Shown here in pieces: positions 19,971-64,000 of a stretch of DNA of 64,000 nt. Source of the DNA: an uncultured Bacilli bacterium (lineage in GTDB: Bacteria > Bacillota_I > Bacilli_A > RFN20 > CAG-826); NCBI GenBank assembly GCA_905235705.1, contig CAJOML010000001.1:12118-76117 (forward strand), given 5' to 3'. The notes under the pieces were generated by a model. That model searched no databases, was not told where the DNA came from, and saw only the letters and a list, made by a program, of their open reading frames with translations. Position numbers and translations under genes: made by a program. Each line of letters begins with the position of its first letter. Positions within the stretch are counted from its first letter, which is position 1.

Positions 19971-19971
19971 T

Positions 19972-33559: not shown

Positions 33560-33720
33560 ACAGTTTGATATTTTGAACGAGGATAGAAAAATGGGAAGAA
33601 AAAATGAAATTATTTTTCTTTGTTCCAGTTATATTTTCCTCCTCTTATAATAAGAGAGTGGTAACCCTTGAGATCTTAGAACGTTCACAAAGAACCAGGC
33701 CTCGGAAATGGATCCGTAAC

Positions 33721-45600: not shown

Positions 45601-46696
45601 CACGGGAGTTCTTTAATTCTTTGTATGAGGATGCTTCGCCTCTAACTTGCTGATTCCAGTTGATGTCGCTAGTTCCATCAACGGTAATCTCGGCTTGCAA
45701 GGTCATGCCATCTTGAATATTCCAAACAGCGGAATCGGGGGAACCGCCATTAATATCCAATTTGGCGGGGAGGTCGATGCCAGTCAGATTGTAGTCAGAG
45801 CTGCTAGCGAAGCCTAAAGGAATCGTTTTATTATCAGAAATCGGGAGATTCCAAACAAAATATGGCTTAGATGAAACTTCATATTCCTTCATTTCGTCCA
45901 TCGAGGCGAGGATTTTGTCGGTAAGCGAGGTGTCGCTGGTGCTATCATCGCTGGTGGAAGAGGAACCGGTAAGGTTATTTAGCCATCCTTCCAAAGAGAC
46001 GGAGATGCCACCTTCGGATAAGGTTTCGAGGATGACTTCAATCAACCAGTCAAGTTCGCCATATTCATAATAGTATGCGCCACGGGTGAGGGAATCGATG
46101 GAATTAACGGAAGGGTTCACCTGCGAAGCGGCGGCACTAACATGATATTTGAAATCCCAAGTGGATGTGGTGCGAGCGGGAATCTCCCCGTTTTCTTCTA
46201 AATCGGGCACGACATAAGCGGCATCGCCATTATCGAAGAGATCTAAATAGATGTCGTCATTAATCAAAGAAGCATAGATGCCTCTATTTTTGGCCTCGTA
46301 GCCATTATCGCTATAGGAAATAGGTAAATCCAAAGCGAAGTTTATGCCGTGAAGAGAAAGCTCGTTCATGGCAAAATAGATGCGGCCAGGGTTGCTTTCG
46401 GTGACTTCGATCGTGTTATGACCGGCTTTGGCGTTTTCACCGGTATAGAATTGGTCGAATTTCAAGTGCTTAACGTCAAGCTTTAAGCCCGCGGTTGCTC
46501 CTTCGGCGAGGTTTCCGATGAATCTCTCGCGTCCGGTTAAAGCGGCTAGGCCATCGCCATCATCAGGTCCGGCGACGTGCTCGATGCTCACTTTCTGCGG
46601 GATGGCAAAGAAAGTGGTCGCGGCAGCAACGCCAAATAAGGCGAACGCGCTCAAACCTAGAAGGAGACGTTTCTTTCCACTTAATTTTTGTTTCAT
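42638..46696 (-). CDS. Very large surface protein (1352 aa) with N-terminal signal/anchor, paralog of the 1192-aa lipoprotein
   Basis: N-terminal hydrophobic segment. Conserved blocks shared with 38204..41782. Confidence 0.6.
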   Translation of the reverse strand: MKQKLSGKKRLLLGLSAFALFGVAAATTFFAIPQKVSIEHVAGPDDGDGLAALTGRERFIGNLAEGATAGLKLDVKHLKFDQFYTGENAKAGHNTIEVTESNPGRIYFAMNELSLHGINFALDLPISYSDNGYEAKNRGIYASLINDDIYLDLFDNGDAAYVVPDLEENGEIPARTTSTWDFKYHVSAAASQVNPSVNSIDSLTRGAYYYEYGELDWLIEVILETLSEGGISVSLEGWLNNLTGSSSTSDDSTSDTSLTDKILASMDEMKEYEVSSKPYFVWNLPISDNKTIPLGFASSSDYNLTGIDLPAKLDINGGSPDSAVWNIQDGMTLQAEITVDGTSDINWNQQVRGEASSYKELKNSRELFEGIAKVIAKPEVGVSVGLDLKHATSNNREADRTHLKKQSVNEDAYIKIDANLDAFVKGNPLSTSTRSLEGLDANIEIGEGTIQTHDSTKANKIGVAYLKEVEEGNEVFNGYLNVNDVIKAKSGWTYLHEFYTNTIAETFTGVGDSLSLDQFEKLLGSIGDSINAIKNSKVLKAIDKGAYNGLLDLLTLFKNADNQILIELGLSPLGLTGTVSLTLDGVDENLLNLTFNNVRFASLTLNGSVKSVAFDQPKAPVFDASVAKNYETISHLKGIGGQIKSLVDSKSFKANLAGSIAKGDKQTLAIGGDIAVKFNGETSNGKGGAKLTLKQMKNEANTQDHNIALDFQEGFTDIFFHYDSYSTTAESSAKTSKGINGFINVEAAKKVFNSDNFDFDFLIDFFKNDDRFSRLGTALMSESSLIGDILNGEYFGLLEARGILKTVSLGSSTSVIINGPAIGLKDTTIALDITYLPSSGEEEGGIDTLKVTITKAPEEGESTVISFTVSGIEAVAENEEISFISSYEGFDDYSPLAEMGRDLINTLTVGTYMDNGTFGGVSNYGIEGSIGLDIAGYGMNVYQFNADASVEGAETKIYASFPNLPVIRGINGPDDEHYFRPNEIEGKRNSEIFFYANGVDPEGSALILRDSSYGRLRNVQDAVKVGGKDLLSNLLGYIGEYAIGLNESLFTPSEEATTTTSNEESASAKGIHIDDAWTGFKSVETTDGRDYIISLDLGELVGVGILDEIVVTIHSRKVTSTNYSEKILTGLDAELNVKATASNILEGNEKPNQLYIASAKVSLNLTNISGSNQIEAVCGENSRFAQIYVGNVHDSGLLYDNDATDEEVIADARGSLFELKNGFQGELDTSEGTLNNYYGYNYTLENATAPESGFNHYIYPTKSVTFTIDASSLTNDASIVLVEGVATVEGEVADYAEEVTLEYKGSLNAVKVTIGEETTDEYSFAFKAGKSYTIVLGEKEGKTIIAKVLEND

Positions 46697-46711: not shown

Positions 46712-47650
46712 TTATAGACTTTTGGGGAATGCTTCCAAGACGCTGCCGGGATTTGGATATCCGCCAGGCATCGGCACGTGGAAGTAGACGTTAGTGAGTT
46801 CGCCAGTGCATGAACTTCCGACGCCGGCGGAAGTGGTGGCGAAGTAACGTTCGTGGCTTTTCATGCGAACGAGGTTGAGGTCCTTGTCTAGGGTAACCGT
46901 GAGGTGTACCCAATCGAAGGTGGGCCTGTTTTTGAGGTTGGAGATGCTTTGCATCTGCTTTTGATAACGGGCCGTCGAGGTCTTAGGGTCTAATTCCACT
47001 TCGACACGGTATCCGCCGTTTTCCTCATAAATCCCAGTCGGGGGATCCCCAGAAGGGCTGCTCCCTTGTAAGAGGGTTTTCTCCGATACGATGTAGGAGA
47101 GTCCGACCGAGACATATCGCCCCATCTTCTCCTTGTATTGCTCGTTAGTGATGGTTTCGGGCGTGTGGGAAGCGTAGTCAGGGTTATCGCCCCAATACAA
47201 AGTGGTGTTATCGCCTTCTTGGAACATTCGGTCGTATAGATTAACTAGACCGCTGGAATTGGATTCCTCGAAATAGCGATTTCCTTCTTTTGCGGTGCGT
47301 GCGGTAATGACTTGCTTGACCATCGCGGCTTGGGTGAAACCGACACCCATTGAGTAATTGCTTTCCTCTTGTCCGAATAACTCGAACCCGATGTTGATCA
47401 TTTCAGGGGCGGAAAGGGAGGAATAATCGCCTTTTGATTTTGCCGCCTGATATTTCTTCATCGTCGTCTCGATGTCGATAACATAGGCATCTTCGTCAAC
47501 CACATATTGAGTGGTATCGGGCTTGAGGACTTTGGCCAAGACGAAACCGCCGACCACTCCTAGCACCGCAGCGGAGGCTAGGACAATCGGCCAGACCAGG
47601 GCGATGCCATGGTGAGAACGGGTTTTATTCACTGATTCAACGGTTTTCAT
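46712..47650 (-). CDS. Membrane-anchored (N-terminal TM) extracytoplasmic protein, unknown function
   Basis: 312 aa with a single N-terminal TM. Ends 16 bp upstream of the 1352-aa gene. Confidence 0.5.
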   Translation of the reverse strand: MKTVESVNKTRSHHGIALVWPIVLASAAVLGVVGGFVLAKVLKPDTTQYVVDEDAYVIDIETTMKKYQAAKSKGDYSSLSAPEMINIGFELFGQEESNYSMGVGFTQAAMVKQVITARTAKEGNRYFEESNSSGLVNLYDRMFQEGDNTTLYWGDNPDYASHTPETITNEQYKEKMGRYVSVGLSYIVSEKTLLQGSSPSGDPPTGIYEENGGYRVEVELDPKTSTARYQKQMQSISNLKNRPTFDWVHLTVTLDKDLNLVRMKSHERYFATTSAGVGSSCTGELTNVYFHVPMPGGYPNPGSVLEAFPKSL

Positions 47651-48990: not shown

Positions 48991-49091
48991 AATAAAAACC
49001 TACCGCGCATAGTTTACTCATCCAAACTCAAATGGGCAATATAGAGTTTTACTCTAGATTATTCCCTTTTTGTCCCGTTCCTGTGATAATT

Positions 49092-50960
49092 ATGGCGATG
49101 AAAAAATCTTTTGGTTTTGTCATGGCCGCCTCCTTGGCCTCGATTGTCCTCGCAGGGTGCGATTTATCCCCAGGCGAGGCGGGGGATTATTTCCGTGTCG
49201 ATCTTTATTCCGATTATGAAGGAATCGACAGCGATTTGGCCAAGCAATCGCTAAAACCAACCAATGCCAAGCATCTTGGATATTGCTATGCCAAAAAGGG
49301 CGGCAAAGCCAATATTGATGGGTTAATCGTTATCGATTCATGGGAATACCATAAATCCACCCGCACAGCTCCAAGTGGATACACATATCAATTCGCTTCG
49401 TGGAACGGGTTTTATGAAGACGGCAAAAAAATCGATCTTAACGTCGTCACCGCCGCATGTTCGGTTTACGCAACTTTCGATAAAGTCGAGAAGTCTTATG
49501 CGATTGCCTTAGAGAATTCTTATCAAGTGGCGAAAAAGGGTAATGGCAAATACCAAAGCGCCCTTGGCGATGTCGAAGGTTTCGCCTTGACTTCCGATGA
49601 ATTTAAGCACGATCCTCTTAATTTTGATTACGACCCCTATTATAAAAACTACACCTTCGATGGCTATACCATCACCACCGTGGACGATGCAAACGTTTCG
49701 ACTTCCGTCAAAGTCAGCGCGAAAGAAGGCTTTTCGAAAGTAAATGAACATCTTATCGGCGGGAAGACCACGGTTGAAGTCAATTATATTGAATCGCTTA
49801 AGGATTATACGGTTACCATAAACCCCGTTTTCCGCGATGAGGATGATAATGAAACTAGCCTTGTTTCCCTTTTCGGCGAAGAAGAATTAAAACAAACCAT
49901 CACTTACGATGAAGCTTTGGCCCCGACCAAAAACCTTTCTGGTTATGTTTTCTTGGGATATGAAGGAACTTACGGGGAAGATGCCGATAGCCATGTCAAA
50001 GGGCATGTCATTGACCCGACCCATATCCGTTATCATGGCGAGGTGAAGGCGGTTTATGTTGAAGAAGTTCCTTCTCGCGAAGTCTTGTTCCATCTTGGTG
50101 CCACCTCGACTAAGAAGACGACTTTCCATCAAGGCGGGATGCCTATTCTTCCTGACCGCAACGTCGAAGTCCCCGATAAATATGCCTTTACCGGATATTA
50201 TGCAAAGACCGAGGGAAGCTATGAGGCTATCGATTTCTCATCCATCTTTGATGAAGAAACGACTCTTGACGCCTATCCGATTTTCGTGCCCTTAAGGCTT
50301 GCTTATATAAATACAAAGAAGATTGGCGGCGAGACCTATGATCAACAATTCACTTATCGTTTCGATCGCTCCTATGGCGGATATATGCTTGAAAACTATT
50401 GCTTAAGCAAAGGCGGGGTTTTCGCCGAAAGGCTCGAACCCTCCATCAAATTAAGCGCCGAAGATTTCTGGGATAAGGATAATTCTTCCGGATACGAGGC
50501 AATTGGTATCGCCGGTTATAGTGATATGGCAACGATTTTATCCGCCTATGAATTCGTTGGCGTCTCTAGTTTTACTTCCTCCTCGGCATCTAATGCCTTA
50601 GGAAGTGCCGCCTATGCCATTGAAGAACTCGCTTTGCCAAATTCAGTTAAAACGATTTCCTCGAATGGCTTTGCCTTGCTTAGCGGCTTAGGATATGGTG
50701 GCCATCAACTCGATTTAAGTGGCTTGGATTTAGAATATATCGGACCTGCCGCTTTCCGTTCTTGCATCAATTTAAAGAACATCACGTTGCCTAAATTATC
50801 CCAAGTCGATGCTCGGCTTTTTGCTGAATGTGATTGGCTTAGCGGCGTCGAAGTGGGCAATACCGAAGATGAATTATCTACCCTTATCGGCGAGGGCAAA
50901 GTCCATGCCGATTGGAATAAAAACGGAGATGTTACCATCCCCGTGACTTATGCTGCTTGA
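49092..50960 (+). CDS. Lipoprotein with C-terminal BspA-type leucine-rich repeats
   Basis: MAMKKSF..LAGC lipobox. C-terminal repeats with the LPNSVKTIS..AF / L..I.LP.L..V pattern typical of LRR_5. Confidence 0.6.
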   Translation: MAMKKSFGFVMAASLASIVLAGCDLSPGEAGDYFRVDLYSDYEGIDSDLAKQSLKPTNAKHLGYCYAKKGGKANIDGLIVIDSWEYHKSTRTAPSGYTYQFASWNGFYEDGKKIDLNVVTAACSVYATFDKVEKSYAIALENSYQVAKKGNGKYQSALGDVEGFALTSDEFKHDPLNFDYDPYYKNYTFDGYTITTVDDANVSTSVKVSAKEGFSKVNEHLIGGKTTVEVNYIESLKDYTVTINPVFRDEDDNETSLVSLFGEEELKQTITYDEALAPTKNLSGYVFLGYEGTYGEDADSHVKGHVIDPTHIRYHGEVKAVYVEEVPSREVLFHLGATSTKKTTFHQGGMPILPDRNVEVPDKYAFTGYYAKTEGSYEAIDFSSIFDEETTLDAYPIFVPLRLAYINTKKIGGETYDQQFTYRFDRSYGGYMLENYCLSKGGVFAERLEPSIKLSAEDFWDKDNSSGYEAIGIAGYSDMATILSAYEFVGVSSFTSSSASNALGSAAYAIEELALPNSVKTISSNGFALLSGLGYGGHQLDLSGLDLEYIGPAAFRSCINLKNITLPKLSQVDARLFAECDWLSGVEVGNTEDELSTLIGEGKVHADWNKNGDVTIPVTYAA

Positions 50961-53755: not shown

Positions 53756-53829
53756 TGGAGCAGGTGACGGGAATCGGACCCGCATAACCAGCTTGGAAGG
53801 CTGGTGTTCTACCACTGAACTACACCTGC
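53756..53829 (-). tRNA. tRNA-Gly (anticodon UCC)
   Basis: Reverse complement GCAGGTGTAGTTCAGTGGTAGAACACCAGCCTTCCAAGCTGG...CACCTGCTCCA. Anticodon loop CTTCCAA. CCA is encoded. Confidence 0.85.
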
Positions 53830-53831
53830 GC

Positions 53832-53908
53832 TGGCGGACCATACGAGATTCGAACTCGTGATCTCTTCCGTGACAGGGAAGCATGTTAGGCCGCTACACC
53901 AATGGTCC
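53832..53908 (-). tRNA. tRNA-Asp (anticodon GUC)
   Basis: Reverse complement GGACCATTGGTGTAGCGGCCTAACATGCTTCCCTGTCACGGAAG...GGTCCGCCA. Anticodon loop CTGTCAC. Confidence 0.85.
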
Positions 53909-54004: not shown

Positions 54005-54307
54005 TTAAGCAATCAAGGCTTCGACGCCAGGCTTGGGAAGAAGACCGACTTGCTCTTTGACTTTTTCGCCGTTTTTGAAGACGATGAGGGTCGGGATAGA
54101 GAAGACGTTGTATCTTCTGGCGATGTCACCGAGTTCATCGACATCGACTTTGATGAATTTGACTTCAGGATGTTCTTTTTCGACTTGATCGATGGTGGGG
54201 GCTAACATCTTGCAGGGTCCGCACCAGGTGGCGAAGAGATCGACAAGGACGGTGCCTTCCGCGATTTCTTTATCGAATTCTTCTACGGATTGAATTTGCT
54301 TTGGCAT
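54005..54307 (-). CDS. trxA: Thioredoxin
   Basis: WCGPCK active site. 100 aa. Confidence 0.9.
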   Translation of the reverse strand: MPKQIQSVEEFDKEIAEGTVLVDLFATWCGPCKMLAPTIDQVEKEHPEVKFIKVDVDELGDIARRYNVFSIPTLIVFKNGEKVKEQVGLLPKPGVEALIA

Positions 54308-54319
54308 AGTGAATACCTC

Positions 54320-55228
54320 CTAGATATGTCCAAATGATACAAAGAAAATCAAAATTAAGATACCTAAATGCACCGGGAAATATGCATAAGAGATGATGCG
54401 GAAGGTTTTTGAATCATACCCGCGCTTACCGCTATAAAGATAATAAAGGGGGATGGAGAGCAAACAATAGGTTTGCAATGGCATCGAATAGGGGTCATAG
54501 GTGGTGTAACTGATGGCCCAGAAAATTAATGTCACGACGAATAAGGCGGTGACTGAACCGATATTGAGGACCTTTTGATATTCGGGTTCTTGTTTGAATG
54601 TATCGAAATCGAGTTCAAGTTTTTTGCAATAGTTACTAGTAATAAGGTTGGAGATGGGACGCACCAAATAGAAGCTTAGGGCCAAGAACATGCCATAAAT
54701 CCCATAGGCAGGGCGGAACATCAAAGGGAACCAATAGATGGTTGAGGCGTTACGTGTCTCGATAATGACAAGGATATAGGAAAGAATCTCGATGCCAATA
54801 GGAAGCAAGGCAAAAAGCTTTTGGGCCTTCGGGCGATAAAGGAAAAATAGCATCAAGGCGATGAGCAATAAATCCGTGATGGGACTAGGTCCGGGATAAG
54901 TGGTGTTTGCAAAATCGGGTTGCCGCAAGATGGCATAGACAAAAATGATTTCCGCCACCGTGACAAGCAAATAAAGCGAAGCGATTCTTAGAAGATATTT
55001 CCCCCGGCTATGACTATAAAACATACCCTCAACCATCATGAAGACAAATAGAGGGAAAGCAAACCTGCCGATGATATAAAAGATACGGGCGATATCGGGG
55101 GCAGCCCCACCGATATCACTAGAATAAAGTCCGATAAAGGTCCCGATATGGGAAAAAGTCATCGTGATGATGGCGATGATACGTAACCAGAATTGGTCAA
55201 GGATTTGCAGGTTTTTCTTTTCGTTCAT
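54320..55228 (-). CDS. TraX-family membrane protein
   Basis: LRIIAIITMTFSHIG N-terminal signature. Polytopic. Confidence 0.55.
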   Translation of the reverse strand: MNEKKNLQILDQFWLRIIAIITMTFSHIGTFIGLYSSDIGGAAPDIARIFYIIGRFAFPLFVFMMVEGMFYSHSRGKYLLRIASLYLLVTVAEIIFVYAILRQPDFANTTYPGPSPITDLLLIALMLFFLYRPKAQKLFALLPIGIEILSYILVIIETRNASTIYWFPLMFRPAYGIYGMFLALSFYLVRPISNLITSNYCKKLELDFDTFKQEPEYQKVLNIGSVTALFVVTLIFWAISYTTYDPYSMPLQTYCLLSIPLYYLYSGKRGYDSKTFRIISYAYFPVHLGILILIFFVSFGHI

Positions 55229-56103
55229 TAGGGAATTAAGGCTATTACGATACCAATGATATTATTCATCGCATGGGCTAGGAAGGAAGCGCCAAACCCG
55301 AAACGATCATAGACAAAACAAAGCAAGGCGCCGGCTCCGACATAAGGCGGAAGATTGATTAATTCGATAATCAGTCGCTGACTGTCCCCGAAAGCGTTCC
55401 AATCGAAATGAATTAGTCCGAAGACGAGCATGCCTAGGATATAAGCGGCGACTTTGTTGATACGTCCAAGGAAACCAAAGAGTCCGACGCGATAAGCGAT
55501 TTCTTCAACCAAAGGCCCCAAGATCCCAAATACGAAGACGCTGACAACAGGATAAGAGGCAATCATCGTGTTGATGCGAGACTGATTGCCGTTGGCTGAG
55601 GGAGCGATGCCGGCAAGTCGCATCAATGGACTAGCGATAAGATTGTTGTAGAACATATCCATCCCGATGATGAAAGCGACAGCAACGATAGCGGCGACAT
55701 AAGGGAGCCATCCTTTAAAAGATCTTCCGATTTGCTTTAATAGGGGACGTGCAACGAAAAATAAGGCGATGGACACAGCAAGATAGGCAATTCCGTTGAT
55801 CGCCAAAGAAACGCCGGCTGAAGAGGAGATTTCGTTTAGCTGGTCAGGACTTGCCCCCGGATTTGCCATGCCAACGATTGCCCCGGCAAAAACAGAGACG
55901 ATGAGGCTAGCGATTTGAAGTCCGAGGATGCCGATAAGGAAAAGGACGATTTGGCGCCACGGCTCGGCGTGGACTTGATGGAGATAGCCGCGCGCAAAAG
56001 CTTCGGTTTCGGTGACCTCCCCACAACGTGGGCATTTTCCTTCGATGGGGTCATATTGACCACCGCAATGGGAACATGTTCTTCGGGCGAAATGATTTTC
56101 CAT
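55228..56103 (-). CDS. CPBP-family (CAAX/Abi) intramembrane metalloprotease with N-terminal zinc ribbon
   Basis: CSHCGG...CPRCG ribbon, then TMs with the EEIAYR, FGLIHF and HAMNN motifs. ATG 56103 is preferred over 56184, which would sit 13 bp from the divergent gene. Confidence 0.65.
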   Translation of the reverse strand: MENHFARRTCSHCGGQYDPIEGKCPRCGEVTETEAFARGYLHQVHAEPWRQIVLFLIGILGLQIASLIVSVFAGAIVGMANPGASPDQLNEISSSAGVSLAINGIAYLAVSIALFFVARPLLKQIGRSFKGWLPYVAAIVAVAFIIGMDMFYNNLIASPLMRLAGIAPSANGNQSRINTMIASYPVVSVFVFGILGPLVEEIAYRVGLFGFLGRINKVAAYILGMLVFGLIHFDWNAFGDSQRLIIELINLPPYVGAGALLCFVYDRFGFGASFLAHAMNNIIGIVIALIP

Positions 56104-56162
56104 GGCGAAAGTATACCATTTTGGGGAAAACGAGGTTATGAGAAAACATCTCGCGGAGGCTA

Positions 56163-56196
56163 GCGCGTTGCAACGCGCCCTCATTTACGCGATAAT
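56163..56196 (+). promoter_or_regulatory. Promoter TTGCAA-N17-GATAAT with perfect 16-bp palindrome GCGCGTTGCAACGCGC over the -35, driving the 2471-aa gene
   Basis: Palindrome at 56163-56178. Hexamers at 56168-73 and 56191-96. The predicted TSS coincides with ATG 56203, implying a leaderless transcript. Confidence 0.5.
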
Positions 56197-59100
56197 ATGC
56201 GCATGATACTCGCGAGCGGATTTGACATCAGTGGCCTCATTGATAATTTGGATTTGATTTGGTCAATCGTCTTCTGGTCTATTCTTGGCCTTTTGCTTAT
56301 TTCGTTTTTCATTGGCTTACTTCGTGGCTGGAAAAGCGGGACATATCGCCTGATTTTCCTTTCCGTCTTGGCCGTAACGTTGCTTGCTTTTCTTGGCGTT
56401 TTTGCCGATGTTATCGGCAAAATAGATTTACGTTCCTTTACACAGAATCCGATTAGCTTCACTTTGAATGAGGTAGAGATCAGCGCCAACCCAGGACCTG
56501 TTTTCGAAACGGTTCGGGAACTGACCTATAAGGTCCTCAAAGACGCCTTGAAAATCAAGGGCTCGGTTGAGACGCTTCAAAACTATGCCGTCGCATTGAC
56601 CGCTTCAATGATTCGCCTTGCTCTTATCGCCATAATCGGCATAACGGTTGCTACCGTCGGCTCGTTGCTTTGCTGGATATTGTGGCACATTGCCTTTAAA
56701 TTCATCATCCCCAAGCCCAAACGTAAGCCGAAATTACGTTGGGTTTCAGGCATTGAGGAAGTGGTTGTCACAGCCTTATGTGGCGTTTTGATGCTCACCC
56801 CATTCTCGGCCATTAGCAACTCCACTATTTCTAACATCAATCCCAATTCGATTTCCAGCACAGACGAAACGGTCGTGATGTTTAAAAAAGTGGCCTCAAC
56901 TTACAACGAATCAATTTTAAATAAAGCTTTCTTTGCTTGGACAAAAGGGGATGGCAGCAGGACCCTTGATGCCCAGTTTGTCGAATTCCTTTGCCAAGTT
57001 GACACTGAAACGATGTCGGCAAACATCATCTCCGATTTGGCCAATATCAGCTATGCGGCAGGAAAGATCTTGGATGCGGCTTCGGGGGGAGAAAACGCCA
57101 ATGGCGAGCTTTCGGGCTTTGCCTTTGCCCCGATTAATTATGCCGGTCACCTGTTGGTAGAGACCCTTACTTTCGCTGGCAATGACGGCATTGGACTAGT
57201 CAACGGGCTTGCTTCTTTTGCCTCCGACCTCGCGGTTCATTCAGACCAAGTCGTCTCTTATTTAGGCAACGATATCCAAGACCAACTTGTCACGAAAGAA
57301 AAGACCCCTGAGGCTTATCTAAAGAAAGCGGCCCGTTCTTATCGCGCTTTAGCGCAGGCCGAATTCCTTCCGACTATAGTCGATCCCTTCTTTGAAGCGG
57401 AGACGCCATATCCTTCTTATGATGACCCCTATGCCTTATTGACCTCGGATTATACCTTGGATTGCTTGCTCGAATTAAAGAAAGACCAGGAGAGCCGTTC
57501 CTTTTATGACGGCTTGATAAAAGGTTATATCTATGACCATGGTTCACATGCTTCCTTAAAGACGCTTGCGCCGCTGAAAGAAGATGGCTCTGCCGATGTA
57601 AAGGCGATGAATGACATCTCTTATCTTGATGAAGCGGTCACGGTCGTCACCTTCCTTAACCGGGCCAACCACATCGATGCCGATTTCACAAAACAGTTGA
57701 TTCGCTACGCTTCCGAAGGAGGCAGCAACCAAAGCTCTTCCACCGATCTTAGTAGCCTCCTTGCTATGGCGATGAGGGCATTAGCCAATAATAGCGAGGC
57801 TTTAGCCGATGCTTTGATTGGGCCTCGCGACGAACAAGGCGAACCAATCACCGGATATCGTGGACTTTCTAGTAAAGGCTGCTTAATGGATTCAGGCTTA
57901 ATCAATGCCGCTTTCCCCGCTCTTTTGGAATTGGCTGGCAACGTCCTTTCTAATGCCACCGACTCTACCGTCGATATCTCCGAAGTGGCGAATGCTCTTT
58001 CTGATCCAAACTGGGAGATTTTAGTTAAGAATAACAAACGCGAACTTGGGGCTACCTTAGATGTTTTGCTACGTCTAACCCAAAACCCCTATGCCGGTAG
58101 CTCTAACCAAGAAAAAGTCACCTATGGCCAGTCGATTGCCGATACCGGGAAAGCTTTCCTCCGTGATTTCAGCAAACACCCCGGCGTTGACCTTGATCCT
58201 GAAAAGCACCTTTATGATTTCGATGGCAAATTAGGCAGTAGTTTGATGTATGCCATTTCGGGCTTAGACAAATCTAAAGCCCTTGCCGCTTTGGTCCCTG
58301 CCTTTGCCGAAAACGCGATTAACAATATCGACCTATTTAAGGGCGATAATCCGCTTACTTTCGATTTCCATCCCATTGATAGTCAAGGTAATTCGATTCT
58401 TGGTATTGAACTTGCTAAGATTCTTTCAATTGTCGCTCAAGCTCCTCACGTCTTCCCAATTTTCCTTAGAAGCGGGACTTTCAGCGTCAATTCCATCTCC
58501 ACCGCGATGATGAATCACGAACAGGAATTCGTCAAAATTTTAGATGCCTTTGCCGGGTCTAAAATCGCTAACCCCGTGATCAATGGCAATAAAAACGTGA
58601 ACATGATTCGCCTATTCAATAGCCTATTTAAGGGGCTTGAAATCGAATCATCCTTAACCGAAAACGACCTTAACGACGTCGCCCTTGTCAATACCTATGA
58701 TGGGGAAGACGGCAATATCGTGTCCTATTTAAGCGGCAACATCGTAGCAGGCAAGGAAACCGAGGATTATTATCTCATCAATGCCGTCGCCGGCGTCATG
58801 AATAGCGGCGTTCTTAACGCTTTACAAACGATTACCAATACCAATGAAATCCTTGCCAATTTGGGCGAAGCCGATATGGAAGGTATCTTCTCCTCACTTG
58901 GCGGGTCGGTCATTTTACGCAAAGTCATGCCAGCTTATTTAGATGCCAAGATTTTAGATGACATGCTCAATTCCGCGGGTGACGTGAGCTTGAAGAAAAT
59001 GGGCGTTAGCTTCACTAACCTTACCACCAAACAGCAATGGGCTAGTGAAGGGGCTCGTTTCCAATCGATGATCGATCTTATCACCAAAGGTATCGATTTA

Positions 59101-62100
59101 TCCGATTTCGATTTATTCAAAGACGGCGTCAACCTTGTCGATTTGATGGATACATTATGCGATAGCCGCATGTTTATGCCCCTTGCCTCCTCCATCGAAA
59201 ACCCTGACCCGAGGTTGGTGTTTACCGATGAATCCGGAACCCAATATTATTATGTCTTCCCCTCTTATTTCTCGCAGAAGATTCTTTCCGCAGCCGGCAA
59301 AAGCAATCTTTATATCTTCCAAGATGAAAACCCCAATGGGACGACTTCGGAAGAAAAATGCTCTGCCTTTGTTTCGTCTTGTTTGGATCTTAACGAACCC
59401 GCGAAATGGAAATTAAACGATGCTGGCACGGGCGAGCTCGATTATTTGAAGACCATCTTCATCGATTTGAAGGCGCTTGGTAGTTTCGATGCCCTTAGCG
59501 AACTCGATGATCAATCCATCCCGAAGATGCGTTCTGCCTTGAAGCACATGGAGGAATCCTATTGCTTCTCAACCGTCTCCGTTGCCAATGCCTTAGGCAA
59601 GGCAATGGAAAAAGTCGGTGGGAGTGGGGATATCGATTTCTCCGCCGCCCATACCGCTTATTTCTATGACACCAATCGCGGCGAAGGTTATAACCGCGAG
59701 GCTACTGTCACCGAGAAGAAGGCTCAAATCGACCATTTGATGGGTGTCATGTCGATTCTTTATGACCCCCAATATGGATTTGCCAAAGATGGTAAAATCG
59801 ATCTTTCTAATATTAGCCTAGGCAAACTTTCCACTGAATATTTCCTCCGTCCTTTCCTCGAAAATTCATTTGAATCGGAAGTTCTCCATAGCCGTGACGA
59901 GACTTTCTTAGCGACGATTGAAGCGACCGTGTTTGAACAAATCATGGGCTCGCTTGCCGTCAATTCCTCCATCTATGGCATGGATACTTCTCGTTTCAAT
60001 TGGAAGAGCCCCCTTTCGTTAATGGAAGACACATCCCATAAGAACCTCGGGTATCAATCCACCTCCTCCATCTTTAGCATCATTAAATCGACTTCCGATG
60101 CCGAATGGCCAAGTGAAATCGACGATTTATGCGATCTTATCGATTTCCTCCAAAAGAGTGAATTTATCAATGACAAAGGCGATTTCAGCGCCTCTGCCTT
60201 AAATGATATCGGCTCTTATTTTGGCTCAGATCCCAAAATAAAAGAACAAAAGAAAGAAAACCTTAACACGATGATGAGCGGCGTCAATAATGTCGAATTA
60301 TTCCGTCGCGCCTTACCCCGTTACCTCCAAAATGCCATTAATGACGGTAAGTTCAGCGGCAGCTTAGGCAATGACCTAAAATGCACCGATTTCTATTACC
60401 ACGTGAAGCATTATGGAAGCGATATGGATTATGGCGCCTATCCGCAGAACGAAATCGATAGCCTCATCACCATCTTCTCCGAGTTAGGTAGCTCCACCGA
60501 TATCGATATGAACGACACCCGTTCTTTAGATGGCGAGGCTTTATCTAAGGCCTTAGCCGAGATGGAACATACCGGTTCATTTAATGGCAACAAGGAGAAA
60601 GCGGCGAGCATCTTCGCTTCTGGCGATCCCCATGTTGGCCATACCGCCTTTGCCAATATTCTTGCTGATGTCTTAAATGCCGATGCATTAAAGGATTATT
60701 TCTTCTATGCGAGTAGCCCCAAAGACCAACACCACGTCTCCAATAGCGATTATTCTTCCTCTTTAACCAAAGCCATTTATATGGTCGATACCTATTGCGC
60801 GAACAATTATTCGGAGCCTGCAAAAGGCAGCGAAAAGATTGCAGAACTTGGCCGTTTCATTAATTTTATCGCTTCTGAAGAGATGGCTATGTATATGGGT
60901 TCTAGCGGCACTTCCTTCGACCAAATGGATGGTGTCACTTTAGGGGATTTACTCCATGCCTTAAACGAGACCACCTTCTATCGCGATTGCGTCCCCGCCG
61001 CCTTAGATAAGAGCATCAATGCGGATGGAACTTATAACATCGATGGCATTGACCTCTCTTTAACCAATCTTTATTTCTCTTATTATTGGGTGAATGAAGA
61101 TGGCTCGATTAAGGCTGCGGCTTCGACCCGGCCCGATTATGAAGTTCCTTTCTATGATCCTGAAATCGATCAGCTTTCTTACATCATCGGAACCTTAAAA
61201 GACAACAAGGATGCCATGTCTTCCTTTGATGTCTCCTCCTTTGACCCGATGGTCTTAAGGAACTTGCTCCGCGAAATGGTCGATTCTTATTGTTTCCATG
61301 AAGCCGGCGTTAACCTTTCCAGCCCATCTTATAAGACGGCTTGGTTCAAATTTGACGATTCGTATCAATTCGTTGCTTCCGGGAATGTTGATTTACGCCG
61401 TAACGATTTAACCGTCTTTGAGCAATTCGTGCAGAAGATTTATCTTGATTCCAAGCTTTATGAGAAGAATTTCTCCTTGAGTTCAAGCGAAGCTGACCTC
61501 GCCTTATATCTAGAAGCCGCCAAAGGAACATCCGGATCCTATGGTATTGGTTTAGGAAGCGACGAAGAAAGCATCATCGCCTCCGCTTCAAAGATTAAAC
61601 TCCATGACAATATCGTCGCCTTTAACGAGCATACGCTGACCGATGTCAAAAACGCTCTTATCACAACTAGGTGGGGCGATGAAATCGATGCCCTTACTAC
61701 CGACGGGCACCCTCATACTCCGAGGATTGACCAAAGCGAGCCTGACGATTCTTTCGTTGGCTTAATCGAAATCATCCAAAAGCTTGGCATCGCTTCATCT
61801 GGAACAATCGAACTTGGCAACTCCAACTTAAATGGATATGAGCCCAATGAGCTTTATTATCTCTTTAATTCCATCAACGACCTCTCCATCGTTAACGAAG
61901 TATTGCCCAATTCTTTTGCCGGCTTCATTTCGGGTAAGGGTAGCTCTAGCGATGGGTTTGGCTTAGACAAATATAGTAAGGACGAAGTTTCCTATGGAAG
62001 TGGGGCGATTTCTTCGATCGCTTATGACGTGAACGATTATGGCTTGGCCAATACGTTATCCTTTACTTATTCGGGTGCCGATTTGAGTGATGCTTCATTA

Positions 62101-63612
62101 GGGTTGCTTCACGTTAATTATGGAGGCGAAGACGTCACTTCTTTGACTTCCATTAGCAAAGACGGGTCGGTTTACACTTTGAATGTTGAGAAGATTCCTG
62201 GCTCGTTCACCGTTTCTGCCGAAAGCGGTGAGACTTTTGATGATGTCAAGGTAACTTTCGACCGTGCCGATTATCGCCAAGACCAGAAGACATATGAACT
62301 GTTCGGTATCCGTTCCTTGTATTATTTCTTCGCCTCGACCTTCCGCGGCATGAAAGTCGGTGATTCTTACTACTATTCCTTCGATAGCGATTCCGAACTT
62401 GGCGAATTCTTGGAAGAGAATCCCACCAATACACCCGAAAAGACCAAGTTCAAGCATTCGACTTTCGGGTTGCTCAATTTGGTCATCGGTTCGGGTTTAT
62501 ATGAACGTGAATTCCTTAATGCCAGTGATTCTTACCGCGCCAAGGACTACTTCTTATATAATTTGCTCACGGTTAACGCCAACGTTGCCTATATCGGTGA
62601 CTTCAAATATTCCTTTGTTTCTGATTTTGGAACCTTTGGGCTACAAGATGTTTATGATTCGGCGGTTGGACTAAATCAATTGACCGAAGTCTTGAAGAAT
62701 GCCGACCCCGATATCGAAATCGCCAACGAGAAGCGCTTCTGCTTCGAGCAAGCCGCCTATTTGGATCAATTCTGTTCCGATTTGGGCTTTGCCGGTGCCT
62801 TCGCCGAAAACGTCTATTACCGTAATTATCTTGGACAGCGTCCTGATGCTTATGCTGCGACTAGCCCGACTGATTTCATGATGTTAGTCGAAGATGGAAC
62901 GATCGCCTCAGATGCTACCGGTTATAGCCATATCGTTGGCTTTACCAAGACCCATGATTCCTTCGTTGGTTCTGGGTATCAAATCCACCTTTATGGCACC
63001 AAAGAAGGTGCAGCCAACACCAATTTCGTGACTTCCAGCGACCCGATTAATGAGCCTGGCGAAATGATTAAAGGCATTGAAAGCGGCATCGTTAAGAAAT
63101 TTGCCTATGGCTATGCTAACGCGGTGAATGAGACGAACCGTAATTATAAGGTTCCGACCTTCAGCCCGACGATTTCTTCGACGACTTATTATATGGATGC
63201 TTCCCGTAGCGCTTATATCGCTCCCGTTAGCGATGCCTTGGATTACCTTGGCACTTATGAAGAGGCCTTCTCACCCGATAGTGGCTATAGCGTCCTAGGC
63301 GCGTTAAACCGCGTTTGGACATTCCTTGAAGAATCTTCCCGTAGCGGCAGCGGGCTTGATAAAGAGGCCCTTGCTGATGCCATTGCCAATTTTGCAGGTG
63401 CAAGCACCTATGCTAGCGAACTCGTCAATCGCTTCTATCTTGGCGAAGGGTATGACCGACTTTGTCGCACCAATAGCTCTTATATCCCGAACTTCTTCGA
63501 TAACAACAATGTCTACTTCGACTTTGTGGGTAACCATAACATCGCCGCTGGAACTGGCGATTTGCCCTTTAGCTATACCGGACTCGCTAATATTGTGAGG
63601 TCCCATCTTTGA
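56197..63612 (+). CDS. Giant (2471 aa) protein with N-terminal 4-5 TM anchor and a very long Asp/Ser/Gly/Tyr-rich domain of unknown function
   Basis: Single uninterrupted ORF ending in TGA. The start may be ATG 56203. No recognisable catalytic motif. Confidence 0.6.
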   Translation: MRMILASGFDISGLIDNLDLIWSIVFWSILGLLLISFFIGLLRGWKSGTYRLIFLSVLAVTLLAFLGVFADVIGKIDLRSFTQNPISFTLNEVEISANPGPVFETVRELTYKVLKDALKIKGSVETLQNYAVALTASMIRLALIAIIGITVATVGSLLCWILWHIAFKFIIPKPKRKPKLRWVSGIEEVVVTALCGVLMLTPFSAISNSTISNINPNSISSTDETVVMFKKVASTYNESILNKAFFAWTKGDGSRTLDAQFVEFLCQVDTETMSANIISDLANISYAAGKILDAASGGENANGELSGFAFAPINYAGHLLVETLTFAGNDGIGLVNGLASFASDLAVHSDQVVSYLGNDIQDQLVTKEKTPEAYLKKAARSYRALAQAEFLPTIVDPFFEAETPYPSYDDPYALLTSDYTLDCLLELKKDQESRSFYDGLIKGYIYDHGSHASLKTLAPLKEDGSADVKAMNDISYLDEAVTVVTFLNRANHIDADFTKQLIRYASEGGSNQSSSTDLSSLLAMAMRALANNSEALADALIGPRDEQGEPITGYRGLSSKGCLMDSGLINAAFPALLELAGNVLSNATDSTVDISEVANALSDPNWEILVKNNKRELGATLDVLLRLTQNPYAGSSNQEKVTYGQSIADTGKAFLRDFSKHPGVDLDPEKHLYDFDGKLGSSLMYAISGLDKSKALAALVPAFAENAINNIDLFKGDNPLTFDFHPIDSQGNSILGIELAKILSIVAQAPHVFPIFLRSGTFSVNSISTAMMNHEQEFVKILDAFAGSKIANPVINGNKNVNMIRLFNSLFKGLEIESSLTENDLNDVALVNTYDGEDGNIVSYLSGNIVAGKETEDYYLINAVAGVMNSGVLNALQTITNTNEILANLGEADMEGIFSSLGGSVILRKVMPAYLDAKILDDMLNSAGDVSLKKMGVSFTNLTTKQQWASEGARFQSMIDLITKGIDLSDFDLFKDGVNLVDLMDTLCDSRMFMPLASSIENPDPRLVFTDESGTQYYYVFPSYFSQKILSAAGKSNLYIFQDENPNGTTSEEKCSAFVSSCLDLNEPAKWKLNDAGTGELDYLKTIFIDLKALGSFDALSELDDQSIPKMRSALKHMEESYCFSTVSVANALGKAMEKVGGSGDIDFSAAHTAYFYDTNRGEGYNREATVTEKKAQIDHLMGVMSILYDPQYGFAKDGKIDLSNISLGKLSTEYFLRPFLENSFESEVLHSRDETFLATIEATVFEQIMGSLAVNSSIYGMDTSRFNWKSPLSLMEDTSHKNLGYQSTSSIFSIIKSTSDAEWPSEIDDLCDLIDFLQKSEFINDKGDFSASALNDIGSYFGSDPKIKEQKKENLNTMMSGVNNVELFRRALPRYLQNAINDGKFSGSLGNDLKCTDFYYHVKHYGSDMDYGAYPQNEIDSLITIFSELGSSTDIDMNDTRSLDGEALSKALAEMEHTGSFNGNKEKAASIFASGDPHVGHTAFANILADVLNADALKDYFFYASSPKDQHHVSNSDYSSSLTKAIYMVDTYCANNYSEPAKGSEKIAELGRFINFIASEEMAMYMGSSGTSFDQMDGVTLGDLLHALNETTFYRDCVPAALDKSINADGTYNIDGIDLSLTNLYFSYYWVNEDGSIKAAASTRPDYEVPFYDPEIDQLSYIIGTLKDNKDAMSSFDVSSFDPMVLRNLLREMVDSYCFHEAGVNLSSPSYKTAWFKFDDSYQFVASGNVDLRRNDLTVFEQFVQKIYLDSKLYEKNFSLSSSEADLALYLEAAKGTSGSYGIGLGSDEESIIASASKIKLHDNIVAFNEHTLTDVKNALITTRWGDEIDALTTDGHPHTPRIDQSEPDDSFVGLIEIIQKLGIASSGTIELGNSNLNGYEPNELYYLFNSINDLSIVNEVLPNSFAGFISGKGSSSDGFGLDKYSKDEVSYGSGAISSIAYDVNDYGLANTLSFTYSGADLSDASLGLLHVNYGGEDVTSLTSISKDGSVYTLNVEKIPGSFTVSAESGETFDDVKVTFDRADYRQDQKTYELFGIRSLYYFFASTFRGMKVGDSYYYSFDSDSELGEFLEENPTNTPEKTKFKHSTFGLLNLVIGSGLYEREFLNASDSYRAKDYFLYNLLTVNANVAYIGDFKYSFVSDFGTFGLQDVYDSAVGLNQLTEVLKNADPDIEIANEKRFCFEQAAYLDQFCSDLGFAGAFAENVYYRNYLGQRPDAYAATSPTDFMMLVEDGTIASDATGYSHIVGFTKTHDSFVGSGYQIHLYGTKEGAANTNFVTSSDPINEPGEMIKGIESGIVKKFAYGYANAVNETNRNYKVPTFSPTISSTTYYMDASRSAYIAPVSDALDYLGTYEEAFSPDSGYSVLGALNRVWTFLEESSRSGSGLDKEALADAIANFAGASTYASELVNRFYLGEGYDRLCRTNSSYIPNFFDNNNVYFDFVGNHNIAAGTGDLPFSYTGLANIVRSHL

Positions 63613-63613
63613 T

Positions 63614-64000
63614 ATGGCGTTTATCCCACTTGCTAAGAGCTATGGGCAATACAAATGCCTTGGCTCGGAATTTGATTGCGAATTAGGACCCCTTTTTCGC
63701 GAAGAAGATTTCAAGGCGATTTATGATGCCTTTAAGAAGAAATTTCCTAAGGCCGATCATTATCCTTACGGTTTTGTTATCGGCTCCTATAGCAAAAGCA
63801 GCGACGATGGTGAACCTGGGTCTTCGGCCGGGAGGCCTTTAGCTTCTTTGCTTGAAGAACGTAAAATCGACGGTTATCTCATCGTGGCTCGTTATTTTGG
63901 CGGGACAAAGTTAGGCATTCCCCGTTTAAGACGGTCGATTTTAGAATCGGCTGAAGCGGCGATTAAAGAGGCTAAATTAGGGGAAGAAGCAGGAGCTTTC
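63614..64000 (+). CDS. yigZ: YigZ/IMPACT-family protein (N-terminal part, runs off window)
   Basis: ATG 63614 lies within TGATATG after the giant gene. Contains the GEPGSSAGRP...IVARYFGGTKLG UPF0029 signature. Confidence 0.65.
   Translation, partial: MAFIPLAKSYGQYKCLGSEFDCELGPLFREEDFKAIYDAFKKKFPKADHYPYGFVIGSYSKSSDDGEPGSSAGRPLASLLEERKIDGYLIVARYFGGTKLGIPRLRRSILESAEAAIKEAKLGEEAGAF

Follow-up and report, generated by a model that had tools for sequence, protein, structure and literature searches.

The window, which is the whole stretch of 64,000 nucleotides analysed here, carries a giant gene close to its end on the forward strand (56197..63612; 2471 codons plus TGA). The ORF list and translation gave an ATG start, a TGA stop and a product of 2471 aa, in agreement with the first-pass annotation of this DNA, which had described a single 7.4-kb ORF. 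Serine (10.4 %), leucine (10.0 %), alanine (8.3 %), aspartic acid (7.7 %), glycine (7.3 %) and tyrosine (4.8 %) are prominent in the protein. In a second, independent assembly with a 96.6% identical gene no indels were found, and comparison of the two gave a dN/dS of 0.155 over the whole length and 0.085-0.21 in individual sixths. As indels are absent and dN/dS is low, an assembly artefact can be ruled out. Dozens of independent assemblies possess an uninterrupted ORF of similar length. The giant gene is real, intact and under purifying selection, which settles the question of integrity raised by the first-pass annotation.

The gene directly downstream is yigZ (63614..64000, forward strand), which is incomplete at the window end. 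Its ORF matched Pfam UPF0029/Impact_N over profile positions 2-107 of 107 with E 3e-21 and 75.9 bits (cut-off 27), and the invariant motif RYFGG.LG is present in the product, the C-terminal half of which lies beyond the window. By this sequence match above the curated cut-off it is a member of the IMPACT/YigZ family, as the first-pass annotation had named it. At the junction the sequence is ...ctt TGA t ATG gcg..., with a 1-nt spacer, so that the overlap of stop and start claimed earlier is a tight junction but not a literal overlap. The same annotation had regarded this coupling as odd; it is tight, but few-base stop-start junctions are normal in the compact genome of the source. No terminator was found between the two genes in the promoter and terminator scan, promoter-like sites were fewer than in shuffled sequence, and Rfam and tRNA scans revealed nothing near the giant gene. 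The pairing, whose conservation in relatives had been proposed as a check, was found without exception in the 32 related loci that reach past the giant stop; the two genes there either overlap or are no more than 3 nt apart, counted from stop to start. In a 96 % relative, the gene for a 204-aa YigZ is followed by pepP and then by an FGGY kinase gene.

Three genes are arranged divergently upstream on the reverse strand. The first encodes a CPBP (Rce1-like) intramembrane protease (55228..56184), which belongs to PF02517 (E 4.9e-13, 49.6 bits, cut-off 22.4). Its motifs EExxxR, FxxxH and HxxxN are present as LVEEIAYR, FGLIHF and HAMNN, and its N-terminus carries a CxxC...CxxC zinc ribbon. The apparent gap between this gene and the giant gene is 12 nt. 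In the 96 % relative the CPBP gene has its start 27 codons further in, so that about 90 nt remain; the true start is probably at 56106, and the 12-nt gap probably results from the choice of a start codon too far upstream. The second gene encodes a TraX-family membrane protein (54320..55228; Pfam TraX, E 5e-15) and overlaps the CPBP gene by 1 nt, while a thioredoxin gene (54005..54307; Pfam Thioredoxin, E 2.5e-27) is the last one of the divergent arm. The CPBP protease and TraX genes were found in 39 of 39 loci each and the thioredoxin gene in 35 of 39. The complete block, with thioredoxin, TraX and CPBP protease on one arm and giant and YigZ on the other, is held in distant subfamilies of 1612 and 1680 aa that have other flanks, and it was found at none of 58 unrelated metagenomic yigZ loci. 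An M24 peptidase gene follows yigZ in 30 of the 32 clade loci and is missing in two distant subfamily loci. A general ancient link between yigZ and M24 peptidases was considered and rejected; it holds for E. coli and for the present clade, and was seen in 0 of the 58 other metagenomic yigZ loci. The equally conserved divergent genes and the few-base junctions as the norm of the genome had been missed in the first-pass annotation, as had the repeats and the beta-rich domain described below.

The giant protein is the founder of an unannotated protein family of 1,200-3,900 residues from uncultured gut and rumen Bacilli. Homologues could be aligned over the full length with 25-96% identity. The family comprises 30 loci in GTDB species genomes and 282 representative clusters, of which 171 reach E<=1e-30; the proteins are without exception large and unnamed. 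Two further rounds of word-indexed protein search with alignments added just five sequences (P0013-P0017). In many proteins of a short subfamily (about 1,550-1,750 aa), the best-scoring stretch runs from the beginning of the profile to approximately position 390-480 out of 1165. RFN20 and its relatives among the gut and rumen Bacilli occur commonly, are uncultured and possess reduced genomes. Two of the loci come from Candidatus Enteromonas, which equals GTDB UBA733 of RFN20/CAG-826 (PMC8035907). The sortases srtA/B are absent from RFN20, and peptidoglycan loss is predicted for its families CAG-826 and CAG-288 (PMC10868615). Judging from these relatives, the host probably belongs to RFN20 and is probably wall-less.

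Scanning of the giant protein against Pfam and NCBIfam returned no match at E<=0.1. Neither PADLOC nor PHROGs gave a match at E<=0.01, which argues against membership in their anti-phage defence and phage structural families. Against PDB sequences, phmmer and the family profile gave a best E of 0.64. When 30 members were scanned whole with Pfam (29 distant ones and P0154), none showed a match above a curated cut-off; the sub-threshold matches were scattered and Colicin_V alone was recurrent. No paper describing the family was found in the literature. The window contains two other large unannotated ORFs (38204-41782 and 42638-46696), which were considered as paralogues of the giant; no relation to it was found. 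These two are paralogues of each other only.

Hydropathy, AF2 helices, conservation and the K+R counts of the loops delimit an N-terminal anchor of four TM helices (residues 1-210; 56197..56826, forward strand). The hydrophobic segments of the protein are confined to residues 14-47, 47-78, 129-172 and 182-208, with a marginal segment at 739-757 as the sole one after residue 208, and the long AF2 helices of the anchor span residues 11-43, 45-74, 124-170 and 178-213. Of the four to five helices suggested by the first-pass annotation, four are thus supported and the fifth is not. The conservation profile and alignments identified the anchor as the most conserved part of the protein. It has conserved motifs, GLLRGWKxGTYR and LLWHxxFKxFxPKxxRKxKLR, in the loops predicted to be cytoplasmic, a loop of ~55 aa between TM2 and TM3 that is predicted to be outside, and invariant polar residues in the TM domain (S137, H164, S184/E187 and P202).

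The anchor is possibly a distant relative of CvpA, as judged from its sequence. The giant itself did not match Colicin_V (PF02674), the gathering score of which is 29.3 bits. Only a few of about 60 family members matched it, all below this threshold, with up to about 20 bits and E-values of 1.2e-4 to 6e-3. Alignment of the anchor by hhalign against one E. coli CvpA sequence gave a probability of 0.4-2.4 %, while alignment against eight proteobacterial CvpA proteins gave 50.7 % in local mode (E 1.6e-4, TM1 to TM2) and 68 % in global mode, in colinear order.

The loops of the anchor carry unequal charge. Across 39 homologues, the net charge is +2.8 for loop 1 and +7.3 for loop 3, and it is negative for the N-terminus, for loop 2 and for the stretch that follows TM4. 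Residues 211-2471 contain 13.1 % K+R+E and 22.5 % S+T+N. The corresponding values are 12.9-17.0 % and 19.6-28.5 % in the five predicted exported ORFs of the window, and 14.5-26.2 % and 8.0-19.0 % in its sixteen cytoplasmic ORFs. The positive-inside rule in the 39 homologues, together with the exported-like composition, places the 2260-aa domain outside the cell, and on these two grounds it is probably extracellular. The cysteines count against a surface location: the giant has 17 in total, they amount to 0.7 % of the large domain, and one of them, C562, is shared by all of the 12 closest homologues. The exported proteins of the window range from 0.1 to 1.0 % Cys, and two large lipoprotein-like ORFs lie below the large domain with 0.1 %. 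An LP.[TSA]G motif is absent from the whole giant, so it does not belong to the sortase-anchored (LPXTG) proteins. It is likewise no lipoprotein, as no lipobox was found and the first cysteine is residue 159, inside TM3. Both absences had been noted in the first-pass annotation.

For the large domain, about 2300 residues rich in Asp, Ser, Gly, Leu and Tyr had been reported with no assignable motif. The S/L/D/G/Y richness holds, but the domain is not motif-free, as it contains six repeats and a beta-rich domain. Segmental structure prediction, which had been recommended, was carried out as two AF2 halves built on 18-sequence alignments (pLDDT 76 and 74, pTM 0.60 and 0.71). The models are helical throughout except for the beta-rich domain. 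Next to the membrane, alignments and AF2 secondary structure define a conserved all-helical region (residues 211-650; 56827..58146, forward strand), which includes a near-invariant GxRDxxGxPI...GxCLLDSGL at about residues 540-568 and a near-invariant NxKxEFG at residues 612-618.

This region is followed on the same strand by six tandem repeats, each about 200-235 aa long and diverged from the others, which were recognised by an iterated repeat HMM and by hhalign with probabilities of 90-98 %. Repeat 1 (residues 654-836; 58156..58704) was detected with E 3.7e-13 and by hhalign alternative alignments, repeat 2 (residues 855-1051; 58759..59349) with E 9e-22 and 95 % against repeat 4, and repeat 3 (residues 1071-1265; 59407..59991) with E 1.7e-23 and 96.8 % against repeat 4. 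Repeat 4 (residues 1296-1530; 60082..60786), also seen by hhalign, was the seed of the HMM. Repeat 5 (residues 1548-1765; 60838..61491) showed E 7.5e-35 and 98.3 % against repeat 4 (E 1.8e-14), and repeat 6 is partial (residues about 1826-1925; 61672..61971; hhalign 90 %, HMM E 3.9e-10 with an envelope of 1826-1986). AF2 predicted 10 or more helices per unit. Across the family the repeat HMM found 3-12 copies, and the copy number correlates with protein length (r = 0.68).

The beta-rich domain (residues about 1928-2141; 61978..62619, forward strand) was delimited from the strands of AF2 model 2, where it occupies residues 657-868 with a pLDDT of mostly 75-90. Foldseek gave a weak fold match to the cellulosomal CBM 5fu5 (probability 0.84, E 1.0) and other weak matches to a collagen-binding domain and to double-stranded beta-helix folds. 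The C-terminal helical region (residues 2142-2471; 62620..63609, forward strand), which was defined by conservation profile, alignments and AF2, is the least conserved part of the giant, yet it has a conserved end, ...Y..YD...FSY..VA.

Comparison of both AF2 halves, as whole 1200-residue models, with PDB by Foldseek revealed no significant match, and comparison of the C-terminal half with BFVD gave a best E of 0.04. The best matches were generic alpha-solenoids, namely karyopherins, VIRMA, BIRC6 and Nup188, with E 9e-4 to 0.1, TM 0.07-0.14 and rmsd 29-50 A; they refer to whole models, not to single repeats. The eukaryotic alpha-solenoids (karyopherin-beta, VIRMA, BIRC6, Nup188) share with the giant a long all-helical repeat architecture, but they are cytosolic and their identity to it is about 10 %. 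On the predicted models the resemblance is generic and not a sign of homology. A bridge lipid transporter of the AsmA/TamB/YhdP type was ruled out, as the predicted structure is almost entirely helical, unlike the long beta-taco groove that follows an N-terminal TM helix in such proteins, and Pfam gave no AsmA or DUF490 match to the giant. A polymorphic toxin (Rhs, LXG) was rejected because of the conserved C-terminal tail, the presence of yigZ downstream in 32 of 32 loci and the absence of a Pfam toxin domain.

We infer that the giant serves gut Bacilli of the RFN20 type as a surface scaffold or adhesin specific to their lineage, a reading to which we give about an even chance. The conserved N-terminal four-helix bundle would fix the protein in the cytoplasmic membrane such that both the N-terminus and the C-terminal domain lie outside, while the two loops that are short and strongly basic face the cytoplasm. 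The ~2260 exported residues would form one large, mostly helical scaffold consisting of the membrane-proximal region, six repeat modules (3-12 between species), the beta-rich domain and the helical tail. From its predicted fold, the beta-rich domain could bind a ligand or glycan. In cells without sortases and in part without peptidoglycan, the giant may act at the surface as a scaffold, spacer or adhesin rooted in the membrane. Its gene would be co-transcribed with yigZ, probably with translational coupling, and it lies head-to-head with the genes of the CPBP protease, the TraX-family protein and thioredoxin. The suggestion of the first-pass annotation that a membrane-anchored giant may define a new envelope or adhesion system gains support from the intact gene, the absence of a known family and the retained pairing.

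Alternatively, the large domain may be cytoplasmic, in which case the giant would serve a cell without a wall as an intracellular scaffold or cytoskeleton-like element tethered to the membrane. The helical-solenoid architecture, with its only fold matches typical of cytosolic scaffolds, the 17 cysteines with C562, the predicted co-transcription with cytoplasmic YigZ and the absence of a cleavable signal peptide are consistent with this. With four TM helices, however, such an orientation would put the basic loops of the 39 homologues outside, against the positive-inside rule, and the composition is like that of the exported and unlike that of the cytoplasmic proteins of the window, which makes it unlikely. 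The giant may also be a membrane machine or enzyme, with the CvpA-like bundle and the 540-620 region as active or transport site and the repeats as a spacer arm. The strong conservation of the TM domain with its invariant polar residues, the near-invariant GxRD...CLLDSG and NxKxE motifs, the recurring weak CvpA similarity and the adjoining CPBP protease, whose catalytic motifs appear intact, point in this direction; the even conservation along the protein and the constant position of its single-copy gene are as compatible with a machine or enzyme as with an adhesin. Against it, no catalytic family was matched in Pfam, NCBIfam, PDB sequences or Foldseek, the motifs sit in loop regions and CvpA itself has no defined mechanism, so we consider it improbable.

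A functional partnership of giant and YigZ was also weighed, in which YigZ would act in synthesis or insertion of the giant, or both would form one gut-colonisation module. E. coli MP13 is reported to need YigZ in order to colonise the gut, and overexpression of YigZ to boost colonisation by MG1655 (PMC12171958), and this role agrees with such a partnership. The tight pairing in every clade locus also agrees with it, as it survives replacement of the genes downstream of yigZ and is absent from the 58 unrelated yigZ loci. As the family is confined to one clade that keeps the entire five-gene block, inherited gene order explains the pairing equally well. Few-base junctions are the rule in the source genome, YigZ is widespread without a giant neighbour, and E. 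coli yigZ is likewise coupled, to pepQ; we regard the partnership as quite unlikely. In a wider and likewise rather doubtful version, the five-gene block would be one functional envelope and colonisation module of wall-less gut Bacilli, in which the membrane enzymes mature or regulate the giant and YigZ is tied to its synthesis or display via re-initiation at the stop codon of the giant gene.

A diverged known repetitive adhesin or polymorphic toxin (Ebh/FIVAR-GA, LPXTG adhesins, Rhs/LXG), for which the large size, the tandem helical repeats and the less conserved C-terminal quarter could be cited, is highly improbable: a search for a known adhesin family gave no significant match in Pfam, NCBIfam, PDB sequences, Foldseek, PADLOC or PHROGs, none of the repeat adhesin modules of Pfam (FIVAR, GA, Big, Rib, LRR and others) was found in the giant at E<=0.1, the 30 members scanned whole gave none above cut-off, LPXTG is absent, the C-terminal tail shows conservation, and yigZ, not an immunity gene, invariably comes next downstream. 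An assembly artefact, fusion or decaying pseudogene, for which the unusual length and nothing else speaks, can be practically dismissed in view of the dN/dS, the absence of indels and the intact ORFs in independent assemblies.

As neither Pfam nor NCBIfam contains a model for the family, it escapes annotation, and defining it is useful in itself. The gene takes up ~0.4-0.6% of a 1.2-1.8 Mb genome, and this share, the purifying selection and the clade-wide presence make the protein a strong candidate for one of the main components of the surface. It bears on how gut Bacilli that lack sortases and partly lack peptidoglycan build and display a surface, and it could serve as a target for antibodies, enrichment and identification by cryo-ET. 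The fixed coupling to yigZ offers a testable lead on the function of bacterial YigZ. If the five-gene module were true, the bacterial IMPACT family, a validated yet unexplained gut-colonisation factor, would gain a concrete client.

Among known systems, the pepQ-yigZ pair of E. coli resembles this locus in that the start of yigZ lies at the stop codon of the preceding gene and that a gene for an M24 Xaa-Pro peptidase adjoins; the order is reversed, and here the gene upstream of yigZ is the giant. The gliding proteins Gli349 and Gli521 of Mycoplasma mobile are giant TM-anchored surface proteins of wall-less cells and part of a motility apparatus that is encoded by a separate gene cluster. By description they are alike to the giant in their several thousand residues, their TM anchoring and their occurrence in peptidoglycan-free relatives of Bacilli, whereas the giant locus has no pointer to motility. 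Ebh-type staphylococcal giants are extracellular, membrane-anchored proteins of tandem FIVAR/GA helical modules, which are thought to be envelope scaffolds or adhesins; they have an N-terminal signal peptide, a C-terminal TM and a repeat of about 126 aa. Very large size, membrane anchoring, many diverged tandem helical modules and an extracellular location, which for the giant is predicted, are common to both. The giant differs in having no Pfam or sequence relation to Ebh, an anchor formed by an N-terminal four-TM bundle, a repeat of about 200-235 aa and a probably wall-less host. With the CvpA family the anchor has in common the four TM helices, an RG-containing motif right after TM1 and a basic loop before TM4, while the giant has a 55-aa insertion in loop 2. 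Mycobacterial MarP is a CvpA-type anchor fused to an extracytoplasmic domain. The domain attached in the giant is unrelated to that of such fusions and about ten times larger, but the arrangement, a TM bundle placed N-terminal to a large domain predicted to lie outside the membrane, is the same.

The giant gene (56197..63612, +) is an uninterrupted ORF from ATG to TGA in the ORF list and in translation, and it encodes 2471 aa. By hydropathy, hydrophobic segments are confined to the N-terminus (residues 14-47, 47-78, 129-172 and 182-208). AlphaFold2 modelling of residues 1-1200 with an 18-sequence alignment (pLDDT 76, pTM 0.60) gave four long helices, 11-43, 45-74, 124-170 and 178-213, and a small insert of a hairpin plus helix between TM2 and TM3. 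The first-pass annotation had described a membrane-anchored giant protein with four to five TM helices, coupled to YigZ and lacking an assignable motif; this was correct overall, except that the model has four helices. Outside the TM segments the protein is acidic (D+E 328, K+R 185) and rich in S, L, A, D, G, N and Y. It contains no LPXTG-like motif and its first Cys is residue 159, so it is neither sortase-anchored nor a lipoprotein.

The charge of the anchor loops was compared in 39 homologues. Loop 1 carries 2.8 K+R without any acidic residue and loop 3 carries 7.9 K+R (net +7.3); net charge is negative in the N-terminus, in loop 2 (56 aa) and in the segment beyond TM4. With four helices and basic loops 1 and 3, the positive-inside rule would place the N-terminus and the entire C-terminal domain outside the cell. 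Composition, which is independent of loop charge, points the same way. Residues 211-2471 contain 13.1 % K+R+E and 22.5 % S+T+N, compared with 12.9-17.0 % and 19.6-28.5 % in five predicted exported ORFs of the window and 14.5-26.2 % and 8.0-19.0 % in 16 cytoplasmic ORFs. We hold it an even call that the protein is rooted in the membrane and extends a modular helical scaffold outside the cell, where it would act as a surface spacer, scaffold or adhesin. Two features count against an outside location, a Cys content of 0.7 % and a fold class resembling solenoids; both would suit a cytoplasmic scaffold tethered to the membrane, an arrangement that loop charge and composition leave unlikely.

The four-TM anchor is the part of the family with the highest conservation. 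The motif GLLRGWKxGTYR follows TM1, LLWHxxFKxFxPKxxRKxKLR follows TM3, and the invariant polar residues include S137, H164, S184/E187 and P202. Residues 211-650 are helical and conserved according to AlphaFold2 and the alignments, with near-invariant stretches GxRDxxGxPI...GxCLLDSGL (~540-568) and NxKxEFG (612-618). These features would fit a membrane enzyme or machine with the TM bundle and the 540-620 motifs at its centre, and so would the nearly even conservation along the whole protein, which peaks in the first 280 residues and is lowest beyond residue 2120. A machine or enzyme of this kind is considered improbable.

It is possible but unproven that the anchor is a distant relative of CvpA. 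Colicin_V (CvpA) was the sole Pfam family matching more than one of 29 distant members scanned whole (2/29, best E 1.2e-4), and it also matched one further whole protein of the family, P0154. In a lenient Pfam scan of 26 N-terminal fragments (E up to 10) it matched four, and Wzy_C, DUF4131 and VTT_dom were found in more members; every Colicin_V match to the family sits under the curated cut-off. In hhalign, the N-terminal profile showed no significant similarity to E. coli CvpA alone. Against eight proteobacterial CvpA proteins, the local alignment (TM1, RG motif, TM2) had a probability of 50.7 %; the global one reached 68 %, and in it the four helices were all colinear.

When 300-residue windows cut from the family alignment were compared as profiles, internal similarity emerged (probability up to 98.5 %, E down to 2.5e-15). 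Alternative alignments put the period at ~235 residues and show a weaker half-period of ~115-125. A repeat HMM iterated from a single seed copy (residues 1296-1530, copy 4) detected five others, at residues 654-836, 855-1051, 1071-1265, 1548-1765 and 1826-1986, with E 4e-10 to 8e-35. Over 168 family members the copy number ranges from 3 to 12 and rises with protein length (r = 0.68), so the size differences within the family reflect, for the most part, differing numbers of modules. In the AlphaFold2 model of residues 1272-2471 (pLDDT 74, pTM 0.71), helices are followed by a beta-rich domain (~1928-2141) and then by long helices up to the C-terminus. This domain would lie in the distal part of the extracellular scaffold.

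The ORF beginning one base past the TGA of the giant gene runs off the window and carries the Impact_N/UPF0029 domain of YigZ (E 3e-21). Besides the window, yigZ lies directly downstream in all 32 loci reaching far enough, always with at most 3 nt between stop and start or with overlapping codons. A CPBP (Rce1-like) protease and a TraX-family gene are divergent upstream in 39/39 loci, and a thioredoxin gene in 35. In the CPBP protease of the window the three catalytic motifs are all present, and its N-terminus bears a zinc ribbon. Downstream of yigZ, most loci have an M24 Xaa-Pro peptidase and an FGGY kinase; in two distant subfamilies (1680 and 1612 aa) hydrogenase or ParA-like genes replace these and the five-gene core is kept, the 1612-aa locus being without a thioredoxin match. 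Of 80 unrelated metagenomic yigZ loci, 58 were evaluable. Within 3 kb, not one of these shows a large upstream ORF, an M24 peptidase, TraX, a CPBP protease or a giant-family member, which makes the pairing specific to this clade. Giant protein and YigZ may be true functional partners, which is compatible with the other readings and would increase the significance of the family. PMC12171958 reports that gut colonisation by E. coli MP13 needs YigZ and that YigZ overexpression improves colonisation by MG1655. The conserved pairing alone is not proof of a functional link, because the family occurs in a single lineage, gene junctions only a few bases long are usual for this genome, and E. coli yigZ is coupled to pepQ in like manner. 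Partnership is rated rather doubtful, slightly below the two preceding alternatives.

The CPBP gene (55228-56184, -) is probably called 26 codons too early. In the closest full-length homologue (96 % identity) it starts at the equivalent of Met27 (MENHF..., 56106), which would widen the apparent 12-nt divergent intergenic region to ~90 nt. In the window (56168-56205) and in loci L037, L001, L004 and L017, the annotated giant ATG is preceded at 0-7 nt by a -10-like hexamer (GATAAT or CATAAT), and a Shine-Dalgarno sequence is not visible. A second in-frame ATG follows the hexamer by 6 nt in the window (56203, Met3) and in L017, suggesting a leaderless mRNA starting there. The lower-GC relatives L005, L012, L024 and L040 have clear GGAGG-type sites instead.

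The protein resembles nothing known at a significant level. It matched no family in Pfam, NCBIfam, PADLOC or PHROGs, phmmer and the family profile found nothing better than E 0.64 among PDB sequences, and a BFVD fold search found nothing. Foldseek against PDB returned only generic alpha-solenoids (VIRMA, karyopherins, BIRC6, Nup188; E >= 9e-4, TM <= 0.14). Hits to the beta-rich domain were all weak: the cellulosomal CBM 5fu5 (probability 0.84, E 1.0), double-stranded beta-helices and a collagen-binding domain. After these searches it is very improbable that the protein is a diverged form of some known adhesin or toxin.

A word-indexed search found 12 full-length relatives (2004-2492 aa, 25-96 % identity). 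An exhaustive profile search gave 282 representative clusters with E<=1e-3, of which 171 reach E<=1e-30. A genome scan located 30 loci in GTDB species genomes, with mostly uninterrupted ORFs of 2250-2540 aa and extremes of ~1340 and 3921 aa. The larger is L011 (JAGAHY010000176.1, 5932-17697; water-deer abomasum MAG), with 3921 open codons and 12 repeat copies; the smaller are L025 and L034 from UBA 'Bacillales' MAGs, where yigZ is still next. An assembly artefact, gene fusion or pseudogene is excluded with near certainty by full-length homologues, zero indels against an independent assembly (96.6 % DNA identity) and a dN/dS of 0.155 (0.085-0.21 per sixth of the gene).

All named loci are from metagenome-assembled genomes of gut, rumen or faeces, labelled Bacilli, Bacillales, Erysipelotrichaceae or Candidatus Enteromonas, with a few implausibly named bins. 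Those recorded as Paludibacteraceae, Bacteroidales, Parasutterella or Lachnospiraceae (L013, L014, L016, L018 and others) look like binning or naming errors, because protein and gene block are typical of the Bacilli clade. Sources that name the protein call it 'hypothetical protein [Bacilli bacterium]'. Candidatus Enteromonas corresponds to GTDB genus UBA733, family CAG-826, order RFN20 (PMC8035907). RFN20 is known from sequence surveys only, srtA/B sortases are absent from it, and a lack of peptidoglycan is predicted for its families CAG-826 and CAG-288 (PMC10868615). Judged by these relatives, the organism of the window probably belongs to the group as well. The hosts would thus be gut Bacilli unable to use sortase anchoring, perhaps without a wall.

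Otherwise the window consists of ordinary chromosomal DNA from a Bacillota organism with a small genome. Two large ORFs, 38204-41782 (-; 1192 aa, lipobox-like LLLCSC) and 42638-46696 (-; 1352 aa, N-terminal signal anchor), match nothing in Pfam or NCBIfam; they are mutual paralogues (22 % identity over ~1250 aligned positions, E 1e-38 to 1e-40) and unrelated to the giant protein in this comparison. Together with the single-TM 312-aa ORF directly upstream (46712-47650, -) they look like another lineage-specific surface-protein set. Between the two paralogues, 41908-42552 (-) encodes an HTH_XRE-type regulator with an RstR/DicA-like N-terminus, whose residues 87-210 weakly match a membrane-protein model (MSC_0624 family, E 2.8e-4). 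A BspA-type leucine-rich-repeat protein (LRR_5; 49032-50960, +; 642 aa) has a lipoprotein-like N-terminus (VLAGC) and a position conserved in relatives. Multi-TM ORFs at 19963-21855 (+; 630 aa) and 33604-34668 (+; 354 aa) have no Pfam match at E<=1e-5. The window start encodes a 599-aa Schlafen AlbA_2 plus HATPase_c_4 protein (241-2040, -), a domain pair that the distant locus L040 (1-901) also has upstream of its giant block. The genes for Ham1 and thioredoxin flank a tRNA-Gly(tcc)/tRNA-Asp(gtc) pair (53756-53908, -), and tRNA-Leu(caa) is at 2310-2396 (-), near the window start; the Rfam scan found no RNA family beyond the tRNAs.

The data establish the gene and its family, the four-helix anchor, the repeats with their varying number, the beta-rich domain and the gene block, and from these the orientation, export and role of the protein are inferred. 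Giant repeat-built surface proteins are already known as a general kind, and the present family is unannotated and without a detectable relative. It differs from the known ones in its four-TM N-terminal anchor, possibly CvpA-like, in a new repeat module of ~200-235 residues, and in its fixed block with CPBP protease, TraX, thioredoxin and yigZ.
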